A stretch of 64,000 nucleotides of DNA from the IMG/VR virus record IMGVR_UViG_3300028535_000001. The stretch is one strand, 5' to 3'. The notes beneath the pieces are model-generated. The model searched no databases, was not told where the DNA came from, and saw only the letters and a program-made list of their open reading frames with translations. Positions 48,045 to 53,613 of the stretch are shown here, one piece after another. Every line of letters begins with the position of its first letter. Positions within the stretch are counted from its first letter, which is position 1. Both the position numbers and the translations under genes were made by a program. The DNA is from a virus.

Positions 48045-49214
48045 TTAGAATCCCTCCGCTACAGTATGTTTAGTCATAATTTCTGTTTCACCAAACTCTA
48101 AATCCATTTTAATAATAGTTGGCGGTGCGCCTTTTTCATCTGGTATTAATGATGATACAACACCTTCGGGTGCATAATCAATATTACATGATTTTAAAAC
48201 ACAGCGGCTAACTCTTGGTATATATGAGTTTTCACTTTCTCTGTACATATATGTTATTTGAAATTCAGATGGTGTTATGAAATATCCTCCTTGAAGACCA
48301 TTTGATTGTTCAGGTAACATATGAAATCTTAACAATTGTAAAATTTTGTGTACTTGGTCTTTCTCTGACTCATCTTTTGGTGCAAATATAAATGGAAAAT
48401 TAAATGATCTAAATGGCACAGATTGGAATATCATTTCTAAATTTTGGTTCTTTGCTTGACCTAATGCTTTGTCTAATGTTTGTCTAGCATTTTCAAAACC
48501 TGGTATTATACCAATAGCCCCAAATCCAGCTGACTTCATTACTTCACCAATCAGTTGACCGCCTTTTTTACCAGCTGTTTTTATTTTATCTATCCAACCA
48601 GTTTGATTCATAACAGAACCAATAGCTTGGCCTAAATCACCTGCTAAACCTGTTTGTGTATCTTCATAACCCACACTGTAATTAAATTTCATTGACTCTG
48701 CTGGCGTATATAATATAATACTATCTGAAATATAATTATGCGTATCACCTGTTTTGGATACTAGACCAGAAGATGTTGATCTTAATCTGCTGGATTGGGA
48801 TATGCCATTTCTTTTTATGTTTGCTATTCTAGTTCTACTGCCTTTGGGTTTATGGCGAGCTTCAAAACCAGATAGTGTTTTACCACCATCTAATTGTCCA
48901 TTCTGAAAAGTCTGTTGTTTAAATTTGGATGATTTGTGAGATACAATATCAAATATAATATAATGGCCGGCACCTAAATTAGATGTTTCATTTGGATAGT
49001 ATACTGTACCATATTGATATGGATTATTTATAGACTCCATATGTGATAATGGACCTGTTGTTCCTATCTCTAACGGCGATTTGTTTAATAGTTTGGCTGC
49101 CACTTTGGTTGTTTGACCAGATGAGGCAAAGGATAATTTACTAGCAATTGCGCCAGAAACCATGTTACCTATTTTACCTTTAACTATGTTTTTGATCTTG
49201 TTTGTCCAAGCCAT
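48045..49214 (-). CDS. gp48: Baseplate tail-tube cap gp48
   Basis: ILYTP, LEMIFQSVPFRSFNF.F.FAPK, L.F.ETEI.TK; start at MAWT. Confidence 0.82.
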   Translation of the reverse strand: MAWTNKIKNIVKGKIGNMVSGAIASKLSFASSGQTTKVAAKLLNKSPLEIGTTGPLSHMESINNPYQYGTVYYPNETSNLGAGHYIIFDIVSHKSSKFKQQTFQNGQLDGGKTLSGFEARHKPKGSRTRIANIKRNGISQSSRLRSTSSGLVSKTGDTHNYISDSIILYTPAESMKFNYSVGYEDTQTGLAGDLGQAIGSVMNQTGWIDKIKTAGKKGGQLIGEVMKSAGFGAIGIIPGFENARQTLDKALGQAKNQNLEMIFQSVPFRSFNFPFIFAPKDESEKDQVHKILQLLRFHMLPEQSNGLQGGYFITPSEFQITYMYRESENSYIPRVSRCVLKSCNIDYAPEGVVSSLIPDEKGAPPTIIKMDLEFGETEIMTKHTVAEGF

Positions 49215-49240
49215 ATTTACTTCCTTTATATATACTGGTA

Positions 49241-49248
49241 TATTTATA
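49241..49248 (-). promoter_or_regulatory. Late promoter TATAAATA
   Basis: Exact consensus upstream of gp48. Confidence 0.7.
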
Positions 49249-49254
49249 ACGGAT

Positions 49255-49683
49255 ATGAAGAAATCTTTTAAAGGATTATATAAACCAGAGAACCCCAAAA
49301 AATATGTTGGTGATGTAAAGAATATAATATACCGTTCTCTTTTAGAGAGACGTATGATGGTGTATTTAGATAATAGTCACAATATAGAACATTGGGCTAG
49401 TGAAGAATTGCCTATTAGATATTATAGTCCCATTGATAATAAATGGCATAGATACTTTCCAGATTTTGTAGCAAAGACAACTAAAGGTAATAGGGTAGTA
49501 ATTGAAGTTAAACCATCACGCCAATGTGTTCCACCTAAAAAACCAACTAGCAGAAAAACTAAATCTTATATGAGAGAGTCTCTTGAATATATCAGAAATA
49601 AGGCTAAATGGCAAGCCGCTACCAAATATTGTAAAACTCAAGGTGCTGAATTTAAAATTATTACTGAAAAGGATTTAACCTAA
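49255..49683 (+). CDS. gp4: Head completion nuclease gp4
   Basis: KG.YKPENPKKY.GD..NIIYRS..ER, RYFPDF, IEVKP, NKAKW, ITEKDL. Confidence 0.92.
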   Translation: MKKSFKGLYKPENPKKYVGDVKNIIYRSLLERRMMVYLDNSHNIEHWASEELPIRYYSPIDNKWHRYFPDFVAKTTKGNRVVIEVKPSRQCVPPKKPTSRKTKSYMRESLEYIRNKAKWQAATKYCKTQGAEFKIITEKDLT

Positions 49684-51152
49684 TCTGTCCAACGACTATC
49701 CGAAGTATCTATTATAGTTCCATCTTTTGAATCATCTACAACACTAATATTTGCATTTGAAGCTTGACTGTTATCAGTAACTACGTTATTAAAAATGCTT
49801 GTATCAATACCTTTTTTTGCTAAATAATCGTTATTAGCTAAATTCAAAGCCTCAAATTCTGCTACAGCGTCTTTTTGCGCTTTCTTGTCTTCATAAAATT
49901 TTTTATTGCTGTTATATGCCAAAGGAACAGTAACTTCCAGTCCTTTATCAGCCTTATCCATTTCATCTTTGATTGTAGGTATTTTTCCAGCTGTTGCTGT
50001 AGACATTAAATCCATTTCTAAATCTGCTATCTTTGCCGTTAGTTTTGCTATCTTTTCAGGATCTTGGTCATCGGACCAGAAACCACTACCTGGAGCTGAT
50101 TTAGATTTTTCATCTGCTAATTTATTTTGTAGTTTTTTAAGTTCATCTGATTTTGCTGCTTCACCTTCCTCATCTACTAAACCTAATTTTCTACCTAACC
50201 ATGAATATTTGAACCAATCCATCAATTTTTTGAAGAATTGCCCAATTGCTTTTATCTTTGTTGCAACAAAAACAATAGCAGCAATTACCAATGCAAATTT
50301 AGCAATCAATATTAATCTAGCAAGTGAGAAAAAACCACCTATTGCTTTTAAACCTTTCCAAAGACCTTTAAATGCTTTTAAGAATATACCACCAGTTAAG
50401 AAATTAACTAGTTCTACTGAACCCTTACCTGTATCTTTCATCATATTAAAAGCTTCACCTATAGCATGAAAAGGTTCCATGAAAGCCATTTTTAATTGAT
50501 CTAAAAACATAGGCAATCCTTTAGATTTTTGTCCTGTGTTGGCAGTGACGTTAAGTGTATCGCCTGAAGTATCTTTATCTTTTTTTAATTTATCTAGTTC
50601 TTTTGTATTAGCAACTATTCTATCTTTTGTTGTTTTCTTTTCTTTATTGGATAAACTATCCCCAACCTGTAATTTTTTTCTATCTCTATCTAATTCTGTT
50701 TCTATTTTTGTAATATTCTTTTCTTTTAATTTAAATATCTTTTCTTCTTGTCTTATTTGTGATCTAGTTAATACTTCAACCTCTTTGGTCTCTTTATTAA
50801 CACGTGCAACAATATTTTGTTCTCTTAATTTTGTTACAGTCTCCTCTGACTCTCTGGCCTTTGTTTCTCTTTGTATCAATAAATCTGCCAACTCTGTACT
50901 GTATTCTCTTAAATCTAGACCTAACTTTTCAACCAATTTTTCTAATTTCACAATCACTCTTGTAAAACTATGAACAGGACCTTTCTTCAAATCAACTGTT
51001 AACTCATTTATCATTTTAGGTATATTGGGTAGAATAGTCTTAGCTGAGGCTGCAATTGAGCTGTTAACCTTTGCCTTTATTATCTGACCTAAACTGTCAA
51101 TCGCTTGTTGTGTTTGGTCTGTACCTTGGTTTTCTACTATTGGTAATGCCAT
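49680..51152 (-). CDS. Putative tape-measure-like protein (gp29 position)
   Basis: Long coiled coil plus hydrophobic segment; lies downstream of gp26/gp51. Confidence 0.5.
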   Translation of the reverse strand: MALPIVENQGTDQTQQAIDSLGQIIKAKVNSSIAASAKTILPNIPKMINELTVDLKKGPVHSFTRVIVKLEKLVEKLGLDLREYSTELADLLIQRETKARESEETVTKLREQNIVARVNKETKEVEVLTRSQIRQEEKIFKLKEKNITKIETELDRDRKKLQVGDSLSNKEKKTTKDRIVANTKELDKLKKDKDTSGDTLNVTANTGQKSKGLPMFLDQLKMAFMEPFHAIGEAFNMMKDTGKGSVELVNFLTGGIFLKAFKGLWKGLKAIGGFFSLARLILIAKFALVIAAIVFVATKIKAIGQFFKKLMDWFKYSWLGRKLGLVDEEGEAAKSDELKKLQNKLADEKSKSAPGSGFWSDDQDPEKIAKLTAKIADLEMDLMSTATAGKIPTIKDEMDKADKGLEVTVPLAYNSNKKFYEDKKAQKDAVAEFEALNLANNDYLAKKGIDTSIFNNVVTDNSQASNANISVVDDSKDGTIIDTSDSRWTD

Positions 51153-51518: not shown

Positions 51519-51725
51519 TTATTCCTCCCTTATAATATATTTAATTGGATAATCTGATTTAACAACTATCTTTTTTTCAGTTTCTACATTCCAAAAAGCA
51601 ATATGGTTTGGTTTAATCTCAACAAACTTTTTAACTTGTAAAGTTTCTGACTTGCCTTCAAACCAATAAGTTAATTGTGCAGGATGTCCTACAATCCAAT
51701 ACCATATGTTTTTTAGTATGCTCAT
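51519..51725 (-). CDS. Hypothetical protein
   Basis: 68 aa; TAATG coupling. Confidence 0.6.
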   Translation of the reverse strand: MSILKNIWYWIVGHPAQLTYWFEGKSETLQVKKFVEIKPNHIAFWNVETEKKIVVKSDYPIKYIIREE

Positions 51726-51850
51726 TATTTCTCCCTTTTTCTTTTTTCATTTTCTTCTTTAATATAATTAATTAACATCGTAACGTAAATATCACGTTCC
51801 CATGGTATCATATGTTCAATCTCGGTAATGCTATACTTATGATGTTGCAT
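51725..51850 (-). CDS. gp51: Baseplate hub assembly catalyst gp51 (not in ORF track; frame open upstream to the gp26 slippery site)
   Basis: MQHHKYSITEIEHMIPWERDIYV...EEN signature. Confidence 0.88.
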   Translation of the reverse strand: MQHHKYSITEIEHMIPWERDIYVTMLINYIKEENEKRKREK

Positions 51851-51879
51851 TAACGAAAAGTTTACTTCAAAAAACGCCT

Positions 51880-52614
51880 CTAGGCTACTATGGGTGAGGC
51901 CAATCCGAAAAAATCGTTGAGTCCTTCAAAGGTCACTTTACTTTTAACACCTGTCTTTGGATTTGTGACTTCTTGCGTATGTCTCAATCTAGGCATAGTA
52001 TCAAAAAATTTTCTAATTTTATCAAAAGTACCTTGTGGCATTTTCTCAAAAAATTCTTTTAATTCTTCTTTAGTAGTATCTACTCCAGGGTACACTTTAT
52101 CTCCTTCAAAAACTTCGTGTACACAACCTAACATTAAATCAAATACAGTATCGTAATCAGCGTCCTTTAACGTTTTGCTGTTTATCATTGCCATCGTAGG
52201 ATATTTGAGAACAACACCCAATTGCCTAGTGTCATCAAATACTACTTTGTTTGTATGTCCATCATCTACTTGGACCTCAATCTTTGATATGTCAATTTCA
52301 ATATCTGTATAAGTTTTCTTATCGTCTGGACATATAACTTGAAATTTTGATATTTCACCAACTGACTTTGCTCTTATTTGTAAGAACATATACTCAATGT
52401 CAAATGTAGGCAAATTTAAAATATCTATTTTGTTAAATGTACAAGCACCTAAAACTTGTTTGGTTGCTTCTTGTATTTGTTTTTCTTCACCAGACTCTAG
52501 AGCAATCAACATCATTTTTTCTTCTTTTACAAGAAAAGGTCTAAATTTAACTTTTGTTTCTTGCGAAGGTAATGTCAACTCATAAGTTGGTGTTTCTATT
52601 ATCGGTAATGCCAT
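51880..52614 (-). CDS. gp26: Baseplate hub assembly chaperone gp26
   Basis: MALP...PTYEL.LPS, RPFLVKEEK, FDIEY.FLQIRAKSVGE, EGLNDFF. Confidence 0.92.
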   Translation of the reverse strand: MALPIIETPTYELTLPSQETKVKFRPFLVKEEKMMLIALESGEEKQIQEATKQVLGACTFNKIDILNLPTFDIEYMFLQIRAKSVGEISKFQVICPDDKKTYTDIEIDISKIEVQVDDGHTNKVVFDDTRQLGVVLKYPTMAMINSKTLKDADYDTVFDLMLGCVHEVFEGDKVYPGVDTTKEELKEFFEKMPQGTFDKIRKFFDTMPRLRHTQEVTNPKTGVKSKVTFEGLNDFFGLASPIVA

Positions 52615-52632: not shown

Positions 52633-53613
52633 TTATATATTTATTGGTGGTAGTTTGAACGGTGGGAACACTCTACCGCCAGTAATTCTACCTAGTGGTG
52701 CTCTACGTCTCAAATTGTTCAATACGTCTCTACCTGCTCGTCTCAATTCTGGTGGAAGTTTACCTAATAAACCTCCAAATAAACCGGACTGTTCTTTTAC
52801 ACTTGGTTTTCCAAATTTAGGTTGACCAAGTTCTATGTTGCCTTGTTTGTCTAAAAAGAAATTAATCCAATACATAAATTTAAATGTAACTGTAAATGTT
52901 TGTACTGTATTTGAATCATGTGAATAATCTACTTTACTAATACTTGTTGGTAAACAATCAAACAATTGTACACCATATGTTATTTCGTCTCTCTCTTGTC
53001 TAGACGCAAATGATCCTAACTGATATATTCTCATATCTGACACGTAATTTTTATAGTAATTCATATTGAAAGATTTAGTACTGAAAGCGGCACTTTGCCA
53101 CATTTCAAAATATGATCTTTCTCTCATAAATTTATCTGCATAAAACGTTGCTGTAATCTCTGCTGATTTAAAATCAATTGCAACGTGTCTAGTTGGTGTA
53201 TTACCATGTCTAACTTCTTTGGTAACTATTTCTCTATCAGGCATTTCAATAGCACTACAAAATGCTTGAACACGTCTACCGTTTGCTATATGTACTGCAT
53301 TCATATCTTGAGCTGTAAAAAATGAATCATACGTTTCATCTGCCATAGATGAAGATACGGAACCTGCTGAACCATCTGGTCCACCACCTAAAGATTTAGG
53401 TAACATAAACTCAACATAAAATCTTGCCTTACGAGCAAAACCTTCTGCCTCATTTACCATAGCCTGCACTCTACCCATTGTAGATTCAGGATTACCACCC
53501 ATATTTCGTTTTAATCTTTTATCACCTGCCACATTGTCAAGTGATCTATCTCTCGGTATACCAATTCTAATATCGTATCCGCCTATTCTTTTTCCGCCTC
53601 TTAATATCGCCAT
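52633..53613 (-). CDS. gp54: Baseplate tail-tube initiator gp54-like
   Basis: GFARKARF.V, C...EMP, ERSYFE.WQ, P.SI...YS....Q.FTVTF.F..W. Confidence 0.72.
   Translation of the reverse strand: MAILRGGKRIGGYDIRIGIPRDRSLDNVAGDKRLKRNMGGNPESTMGRVQAMVNEAEGFARKARFYVEFMLPKSLGGGPDGSAGSVSSSMADETYDSFFTAQDMNAVHIANGRRVQAFCSAIEMPDREIVTKEVRHGNTPTRHVAIDFKSAEITATFYADKFMRERSYFEMWQSAAFSTKSFNMNYYKNYVSDMRIYQLGSFASRQERDEITYGVQLFDCLPTSISKVDYSHDSNTVQTFTVTFKFMYWINFFLDKQGNIELGQPKFGKPSVKEQSGLFGGLLGKLPPELRRAGRDVLNNLRRRAPLGRITGGRVFPPFKLPPINI

Follow-up and report, generated by a model that had tools for sequence, protein, structure and literature searches.

A probable -1 ribosomal frameshift fusing gp26 to a gp51-like extension in a marine T4-like phage

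Introduction

The G/GT frameshift of phage lambda is a textbook case of recoding, and Xu, Hendrix and Duda reportedly found in 2004 that the -1 frameshift of tail assembly chaperone genes is conserved among long-tailed phages. A review published in 2016 describes this conservation as holding for long-tailed phages ‘except T4’ (PMC5009743). In T4 itself, gp26 and gp51 are listed as hub assembly chaperones in a review of the phage tail, where gp51 is described as essential, as lacking a known function and as missing from the particle (PMC3004832); to be needed for assembly and yet absent from the particle is what would be expected of a chaperone. Here we describe a locus in a 64,000-nucleotide stretch of viral DNA (IMG/VR record IMGVR_UViG_3300028535_000001, hereafter the window, which means the whole stretch), where one tail-assembly gene of a marine T4-like phage very probably gives rise to both a 244-residue and a 296-residue protein. 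The longer form would be made by -1 ribosomal slippage on the heptamer T_TTT_TTC, which would fuse gp26 to a gp51-like segment, and from the sequence comparisons set out below we put the probability of this reading at about 0.85. No published report of a gp26/gp51 frameshift was found in literature searches outside the subscription journals.

The probable frameshift site and its two predicted products

The gp26-like gene of the window (Table 1) begins with an ATG preceded by a strong Shine–Dalgarno (SD) sequence, AAGGAG, and its 244-residue product matches PF12322 (T4_baseplate) with an E value of 3e-65 (220 bits, against a curated cut-off of 24.5) and phrog_150 with an E value of 2e-70. The 3' end of the gene reads ...AAC GAT TTT TTC GGA TTG GCC TCA CCC ATA GTA GCC TAG, so that T_TTT_TTC stands in the X_XXY_YYZ register relative to the gp26 frame, eight codons ahead of the 0-frame stop. 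The -1 frame is open for 66 codons, from a TGA upstream of the heptamer to the TAA that closes the extension, and after the TGA it reads R-T-Q-R-F-F-R-I-G-L-T-H-S-S-L-E-A-F-F-E-V-N-F-S-L-M-Q-H-H... A first-pass annotation of the window, made from the letters alone, had claimed this gene end, the heptamer at its place and a -1 translation running from there through M-Q-H-H-K-Y-S; all of these are present in the window, with coordinates and translation correct. It had also claimed that the segment has no ATG, GTG or TTG after the upstream TGA, which is true of the window as far as the ATG at 51850 (codon offset 21), and of the -1 open reading frame (ORF) upstream of the heptamer in all 121 unique sequence contexts from relatives.

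The predicted long product consists of gp26 residues 1–236 followed by 60 residues encoded in the -1 frame, 296 in all, with N-D-F-F-R-I-G-L-T-H at the junction. Gene callers place a separate 41-residue ‘gp51’ at the ATG at 51850, which we read as the 3' two-thirds of the extension and not as a separate gene. The sequence upstream of this ATG (TTTTTTGAAGTAAACTTTTCGTTA) holds no SD, while the neighbouring genes (the gp54-like gene, gp26, the next two ORFs and gp32) carry AAGGAG or GGGAG.

In the mechanism that we propose, most ribosomes would read the gp26-like gene as far as its TAG and so make the 244-residue short form, while a minority would slip by -1 with Phe-tRNAs on TTT in the P site and TTC in the A site of the heptamer. 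The slipped tRNAs would re-pair on TTT TTT, and reading would continue with CGG ATT GGC until the TAA, giving the 296-residue long form with its 60-residue, helical extension. By analogy with lambda gpG and gpGT, and with the genetic roles of gp26 and gp51 in T4, both forms would act as assembly chaperones for the hub and the tape measure, with an extra binding surface contributed by the rare long form. That the ribosome makes the shift, and how often, is inferred here, as are the partners of the two forms and what each does in assembly.

Table 1. Features of the gp26 locus and its surroundings, in window coordinates
Feature	Position	Strand	Basis or remark
gp26-like gene, 0 frame, predicted short product of 244 residues	52614..51880	minus	PF12322 T4_baseplate and phrog_150 matches
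Stop codon of gp26-like gene (TAG)	51882-51880	minus	
Slippery heptamer T_TTT_TTC	51913-51907	minus	Codons GAT TTT TTC = D234 F235 F236
TGA closing the -1 frame	51928-51926	minus	Five codons ahead of heptamer
Predicted -1 frame extension, 60 codons (R-I-G-L-T-H...R-E-K) and TAA	51725..51907	minus	
TAA ending the extension	51727-51725	minus	
41-residue ORF M-Q-H-H-K-Y-S...	51725..51850	minus	Called ‘gp51’ by gene callers
Possible stimulatory hairpin, GCCUC with GAGGC	51900-51896 with 51880-51876	minus	Local minimum free energy structure
SD-like GAAGGA, possible dnaX-type stimulator	51922-51927	minus	8 nucleotides upstream of heptamer
gp54-like tail-tube-family gene, directly upstream of gp26	52633..53613	minus	phrog_45 tail tube, E 1e-31
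490-residue protein at position of T4 gp29 (tape measure/hub)	49680..51152	minus	Position and composition only
Two small ORFs, 68 and 119 residues	51158-51725	minus	119-residue ORF matches phrog_10198
TnsA-like ORF, 173 residues	49162-49683	plus	PF08722, E 4e-20
gp48-like ORF	48045..49298	minus	Listed from TTG 49298

Conservation of the heptamer and of the -1 frame

Relatives of the locus were gathered with single-protein queries and comprise 10 annotated and 160 metagenome loci, in which gp26 shares 55–100% identity with one or other of two queries. The heptamer and the -1 overlap proposed by the first-pass annotation are conserved across these T4-like relatives: wherever a locus holds both parts (168/168), the extension is offset by -1 from the gp26 frame, and the overlap contains a T-run heptamer. 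Such uniformity is well beyond what chance would give. Of the 121 unique contexts, 116 have TTTTTTC as the heptamer, four have TTTTTTT and one has TTTTTTG. The 0-frame stop follows 0–2 codons past the heptamer in 75 of these contexts and eight codons past it in the other 46, which form the window's clade; these stop distances were recomputed, as an earlier grouping had relied on the ends of BLAST segments and was partly wrong.

The conservation also holds at synonymous positions. Entropy is zero at every T position of the heptamer, while flanking codons vary synonymously (GGA, GGT or GGG; CTC, CTA, CTT, TTA or TTG). The codon preceding the T run may be GAT, AAT, AGT, TCT or GCT, so that the amino acid varies, and the final T is present in 126/126, compared with 74% for a codon-final T elsewhere in the gp26 gene. 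Likewise, the first Phe of the heptamer is encoded by TTT in 126/126, whereas at a second conserved Phe-Phe of the gp26 gene, which served as a control, the first codon is TTC in 58%. By these comparisons the heptamer is kept among relatives beyond the needs of the protein.

Third-position variability points to the same change of frame, since it follows the gp26 frame upstream of the heptamer and the -1 frame from nine nucleotides past it onward, where it equals the variability found after the later ATG; the variability across codon positions places the extension under purifying selection. In tblastn searches 539 phage records match the extension from its first residue onward, including those of cyanophages, Prochlorococcus phages, phages of Pelagibacter and Methylophilales, KVP40-like vibriophages and rhizobiophages, and the matches straddle the annotated ‘gp26’ and ‘gp51’ features, which are annotated as joined in none of the records that were opened. 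The extension matches phrog_634, ‘baseplate hub assembly catalyst’, from residue 3 onward (E 6e-27) and also the C-terminal end of phrog_150, the PHROG profile of gp26; no Pfam model matched it in the Pfam copy used.

One gene or two: relation to gp26 and gp51 of T4

The proteins of T4 show what the predicted fusion may be. T4 gp51 (249 residues) carries a PF12322 domain over residues 1–201 (E 4e-52) and, behind it, a tail with a match to phrog_634, while T4 gp26 (208 residues) has the PF12322 domain alone and ends in G-L-K-E-F-F-E-L-L. T4 gp51 can be aligned over its full length, across the junction, with the metagenome ORF P0002 (299 residues), an in-frame fusion of the two parts (BLASTP E 1e-6), and against a profile of the fused family hhalign gives a probability of 81% (E 1e-5, 222 columns). 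The extension aligns with residues ~205–243 of gp51 and has in common with it the motif Y-S-L-x-x-I/L-x-x-M-I/M-P-x-E-R. Because gp51 aligns end to end across the junction and shares this motif, the predicted 296-residue product is equated with full-length T4 gp51, and the 244-residue product would be the counterpart of T4 gp26.

In-frame fusions of gp26 and the extension occur as rare, single-member metagenome ORFs (P0001, P0002, P0009 and P0010). The fusion point lies at the run (D-F-F-R-I or E-F-F-R-I), exactly so in P0001 and P0009, or a few codons earlier. These ORFs, which illustrate the fusion, could be natural variants or artefacts of homopolymer sequencing.

The number of genes per genome follows a corresponding pattern. 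Copies of PF12322 were counted in related complete genomes, and there is one such gene in each of Mosig, S-MbCM7, Vibrio D491s and Melnitz-2, all of which have the heptamer, and two in T4. A stand-alone, divergently transcribed gp51 of ~250 residues is found in eight phages (T4, one member each of Mosigvirus, Jiaodavirus, Dhakavirus, Lazarusvirus and Krischvirus, Aeromonas AS4 and a T4-like metagenome contig), whose gp26 genes end in GAR TTC TTT, GAA TTT GTT or AGT TTC CTT, or without Phe-Phe; the heptamer is found at the gp26 end in 0/8 of them. Aeromonas phage phiAS5, on the other hand, has a short ‘gp51’, a gp26 end reading GAT TTT TTC GCC TGA and the extension in -1. The heptamer thus occurs exactly where it would be needed, being absent where gp51 is a separate gene and present in phiAS5 with its short gp51. 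On this comparative evidence for fusion, the short ‘gp51’ ORFs of cyanophages and pelagiphages would be only the -1 tail of a G/GT-type pair.

Compared with T4 (PMC3004832), therefore, the window has the same PF12322 domain and a predicted long form with the same C-terminal extension, but T4 has two divergently transcribed paralogous genes and no heptamer where gene 26 ends (GAG TTC TTT). Unlike T4 gene 51, the long form here is not encoded by one uninterrupted ORF, the extension lying in the -1 frame; one gene plus a frameshift would do both jobs. The first-pass claim that a programmed -1 frameshift fuses gp26 to gp51 is in this way supported by comparison, through conservation, the frame switch, gp51 homology and the gene-count pattern.

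Chaperone-like fold and comparison with lambda G/GT

Sequence searches revealed no link between the PF12322 family and solved structures or known chaperone families. AlphaFold2 models were made of a fused relative (pLDDT, the predicted local distance difference test score, 80.9; pTM, the predicted template modelling score, 0.75) and of the window gp26 (pLDDT 82.2, pTM 0.79), and compared by an exhaustive structural aligner with 48,161 chains. The models are confident over the gp26 part, with the extension forming three helices of lower confidence. The same three top matches were returned for both models, all of them aligning to residues 1–95 over 83–85 residues: 3fgx (Z 7.8 for the window gp26, 7.6 for the fused relative), the HK97 tail assembly chaperone 2ob9 (Z 7.5 and 7.4; root mean square deviation 3.8–3.9 over 83–84 of 104 residues) and YqbN, 3klu (Z 6.7 and 7.2). 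We take YqbN to be the chaperone of XkdN type from a Bacillus prophage, and assign 3fgx to the same kind. These three are the only matches with Z >5 in the N-terminal domain, the next match for the gp26-only model having Z 4.6, whereas Foldseek found nothing for the models in the PDB. Though modest in Z, top matches that are consistent, reproducible and well separated support a chaperone-like N-terminal domain of ~90 residues in the modelled gp26, and this tail-assembly-chaperone fold in turn supports the analogy with lambda G/GT.

The likeness to gpG and gpGT extends to the arrangement of the gene, with an X_XXY_YYZ heptamer near the 3' end of a chaperone gene, a -1 ORF without a start of its own, a predicted short and long product with a common N-terminal part, a position after a tube-family gene and before a gene that is tape-measure-like by position and composition, and a modelled N-terminal fold as in the HK97 chaperone. 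There are also differences. The short form, at 244 residues, is about twice the typical size of such a chaperone and has extra domains past the ~90-residue fold, PF12322 lacks a sequence link to known chaperone families, two small ORFs separate the gene from the tape-measure-like gene, and the PF12322 family acts in baseplate-hub assembly in T4.

Possible stimulatory elements and points against the frameshift

The E. coli dnaX gene (tau/gamma) provides a further comparison. Both have a homopolymer-type heptamer with a hairpin, putative here, ~6 nucleotides downstream; in close relatives the 0-frame stop likewise comes 0–2 codons past the heptamer, and an SD-like GAAGGA lies upstream in the window. 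The dnaX shift, however, shortens the protein, whereas the one proposed here would lengthen it, and here the SD-like element is not conserved and the window hairpin is weak.

A stem of 5 base pairs with a 15-nucleotide loop can form in the window after a 6-nucleotide spacer, and it includes the G of the 0-frame TAG. Across the family a synonymous-shuffle test was used in place of covariation, with group labels that denote clades and not stop distances, and the 47 nucleotides past the heptamer fold better than their synonymous recodings (mean z -2.4 in the window's clade and -4.1 to -4.8 in cyanophage groups). Cyanophages have stems of 6–9 base pairs at the same place, in two pairing registers. 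One is a 9-base-pair hairpin (ACUCUUCCA / UGGAAGGGU) that starts 7 nucleotides past the heptamer (L002:1507-1535 and other loci) and consists of rare CUC (Leu) and GGG (Gly) codons; in a sister cyanophage group CCCUCU pairs with AGAGGG in a register shifted by 3 nucleotides.

Several observations weigh against the frameshift or against parts of it. At the protein level even T4 keeps the FF dipeptide, and part of the T run is therefore explained by coding; the loci are mutually related, so that the counts above are not independent events. In phages of Vibrio, Rhizobium and Ralstonia a -1-frame ATG overlaps the gp26 stop (TAATG or TGATG), which makes independent or coupled initiation possible there. 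The fold matches all have Z <8, in the range where the aligner warns of common arrangements. Of the stem GCCTC...GAGGC to which the first-pass annotation had pointed, 6 nucleotides downstream, the pairing arms are indeed present, but the stem is weak, with z 0.61 against dinucleotide shuffles and z -1.3 against synonymous-codon shuffles. Its arms never vary in the window's clade and hence give no covariation signal, and the cyanophage hairpins pair in a different register. The GAAGGA upstream of the heptamer is not conserved among relatives, where only the Gly codon GGN is constant, and was rejected as a general stimulator on that account.

With the family-wide z values favourable and the window stem weak, a hairpin stimulator is plausible for the family and putative in the window. 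The Vibrio, Rhizobium and Ralstonia loci keep the T-run heptamer (L005:1190-1215, L008:1185-1205 and L009:1185-1205), and in these phages slippage and coupled re-initiation may both produce extension-bearing products.

Alternative explanations

The same 296-residue fusion could be reached if RNA polymerase, instead of the ribosome, slipped on the T6 run and added an extra U in a fraction of transcripts. The heptamer does contain a homopolymer run, which reaches T7 or T8 in a few relatives, and P0001 and P0009, which could be natural or sequencing length variants, are fused exactly there. Efficient transcriptional slippage in bacteria usually needs runs longer than 6 nucleotides, however, and in 116/121 contexts the run is only 6 nucleotides long and is capped by a conserved C. 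The strict X_XXY_YYZ register and the invariant T before the run matter for tRNA re-pairing and not for the polymerase, while codon choice that favours a hairpin 6 nucleotides downstream is a ribosomal signature, and we therefore consider polymerase slippage quite improbable. Decay is hardly credible: the extension would then be an unexpressed remnant of a fused or duplicated gene, or the product of a homopolymer assembly error, and although homopolymer runs are error-prone in sequencing and in a few metagenome ORFs the frame is a different one at the run or close to it, one frame relation recurs at all 168 loci, from many samples as well as isolate genomes. The extension is moreover under purifying selection, and related complete genomes have no other gp51, a protein essential in T4 (PMC3004832).

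The absence of any recoding would leave gp26 ending at its TAG, with a separate small protein translated from the ATG at 51850 or from a non-standard codon just past the heptamer. Relatives are annotated in this way in public records, as short ‘baseplate hub assembly catalyst’ ORFs, and some lineages have an ATG 2–5 codons past the heptamer or overlapping the gp26 stop. Nivinskas et al. are said to have described, in 1992, an internal AUU start in T4 gene 26 for gp26*. Against a separate protein, the 20 codons ahead of the ATG are conserved as protein, show third-position variation in the -1 frame and align with T4 gp51, and the ATG at 51850 stands alone among its neighbours in having no SD. 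The Met itself is not constant, as 22/121 contexts have no ATG before codon offset 34, the Met of M-Q-H-H being Ile or Leu in them; the codon at offset 3 is no consistent start either, since it is ATA, ATT, ATC or GTA, and gene callers place the start inconsistently. A separate small gp51 also leaves unexplained why the heptamer is invariant, or why it is absent where there is a separate full-length gp51, and is in our view very unlikely. Ribosomal slippage on T_TTT_TTC is the reading that we prefer.

Gene order and neighbouring genes

The first-pass annotation had described an order of tube-like gp54, gp26, gp51 and a tape-measure-like gene. The gp54-like gene does lie directly upstream of gp26, its product matching PF06841 (gp19-like) at E 5e-4, below the family cut-off. 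The rest of the order is less direct, with two small ORFs intervening before the 490-residue protein, which has no detectable similarity to T4 gp29. The N-terminal half of this protein is charged and coiled-coil-like, a long stretch in its middle is hydrophobic, and its gene sits between the chaperone gene and the gp48-like gene (phrog_230). The 68-residue ORF has no family match and the 119-residue ORF has a hydrophobic C-terminal half; small ORFs occur at the same place in Mosig, phiM7 and Melnitz.

On the opposite strand, wedged between the tape-measure-like and gp48-like genes, is an ORF with a TnsA-like endonuclease N-terminal domain, which may represent an insertion of mobile or homing type among the tail genes. 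The gp48-like ORF as listed overlaps it; 28 codons in, an ATG at 49214 (M-A-W-T-N-K...) follows AAG GAG GTA AAT, a strong SD that makes this ATG the likelier start.

Evolution and meaning

What is new here is a frameshift of the G/GT kind, predicted in the one lineage reported to be without such a shift, together with an evolutionary explanation for the two genes of T4. We lean towards the view that gp26 and gp51 are the long-missing equivalents of G and GT in T4-like phages, that one gene plus a frameshift is the ancestral state, and that the T4 group duplicated the gene and lost the slippery site. Under that view the single gene with its frameshift would be found in cyanophages, pelagiphages, KVP40-like vibriophages, rhizobiophages and phiAS5, while the duplication in the T4 group would have left gene 26 as the short copy and gene 51 as the long one. 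The majority of T4-like phages beyond the T4 group would rely on the frameshift, with T4 encoding both forms as paralogous genes, which suggests that the T4 lineage is not a true exception to the conserved G/GT frameshift. Were the frameshift indeed ancestral, the ‘catalytic’, low-dose need for gp51 in T4 would reflect the low dose that is set by frameshifting elsewhere.

If correct, the reading would give T4 gp26 and gp51, whose functions have been vague since the 1970s, a testable role as a chaperone pair for the tape measure and hub, and would explain why the cyanophage ‘gp51’ looks like a fragment of 40–80 residues with inconsistent starts. The annotation of several hundred phage genomes would be corrected, and the T4-like phages would offer a natural example of frameshifting and gene duplication as interchangeable solutions.

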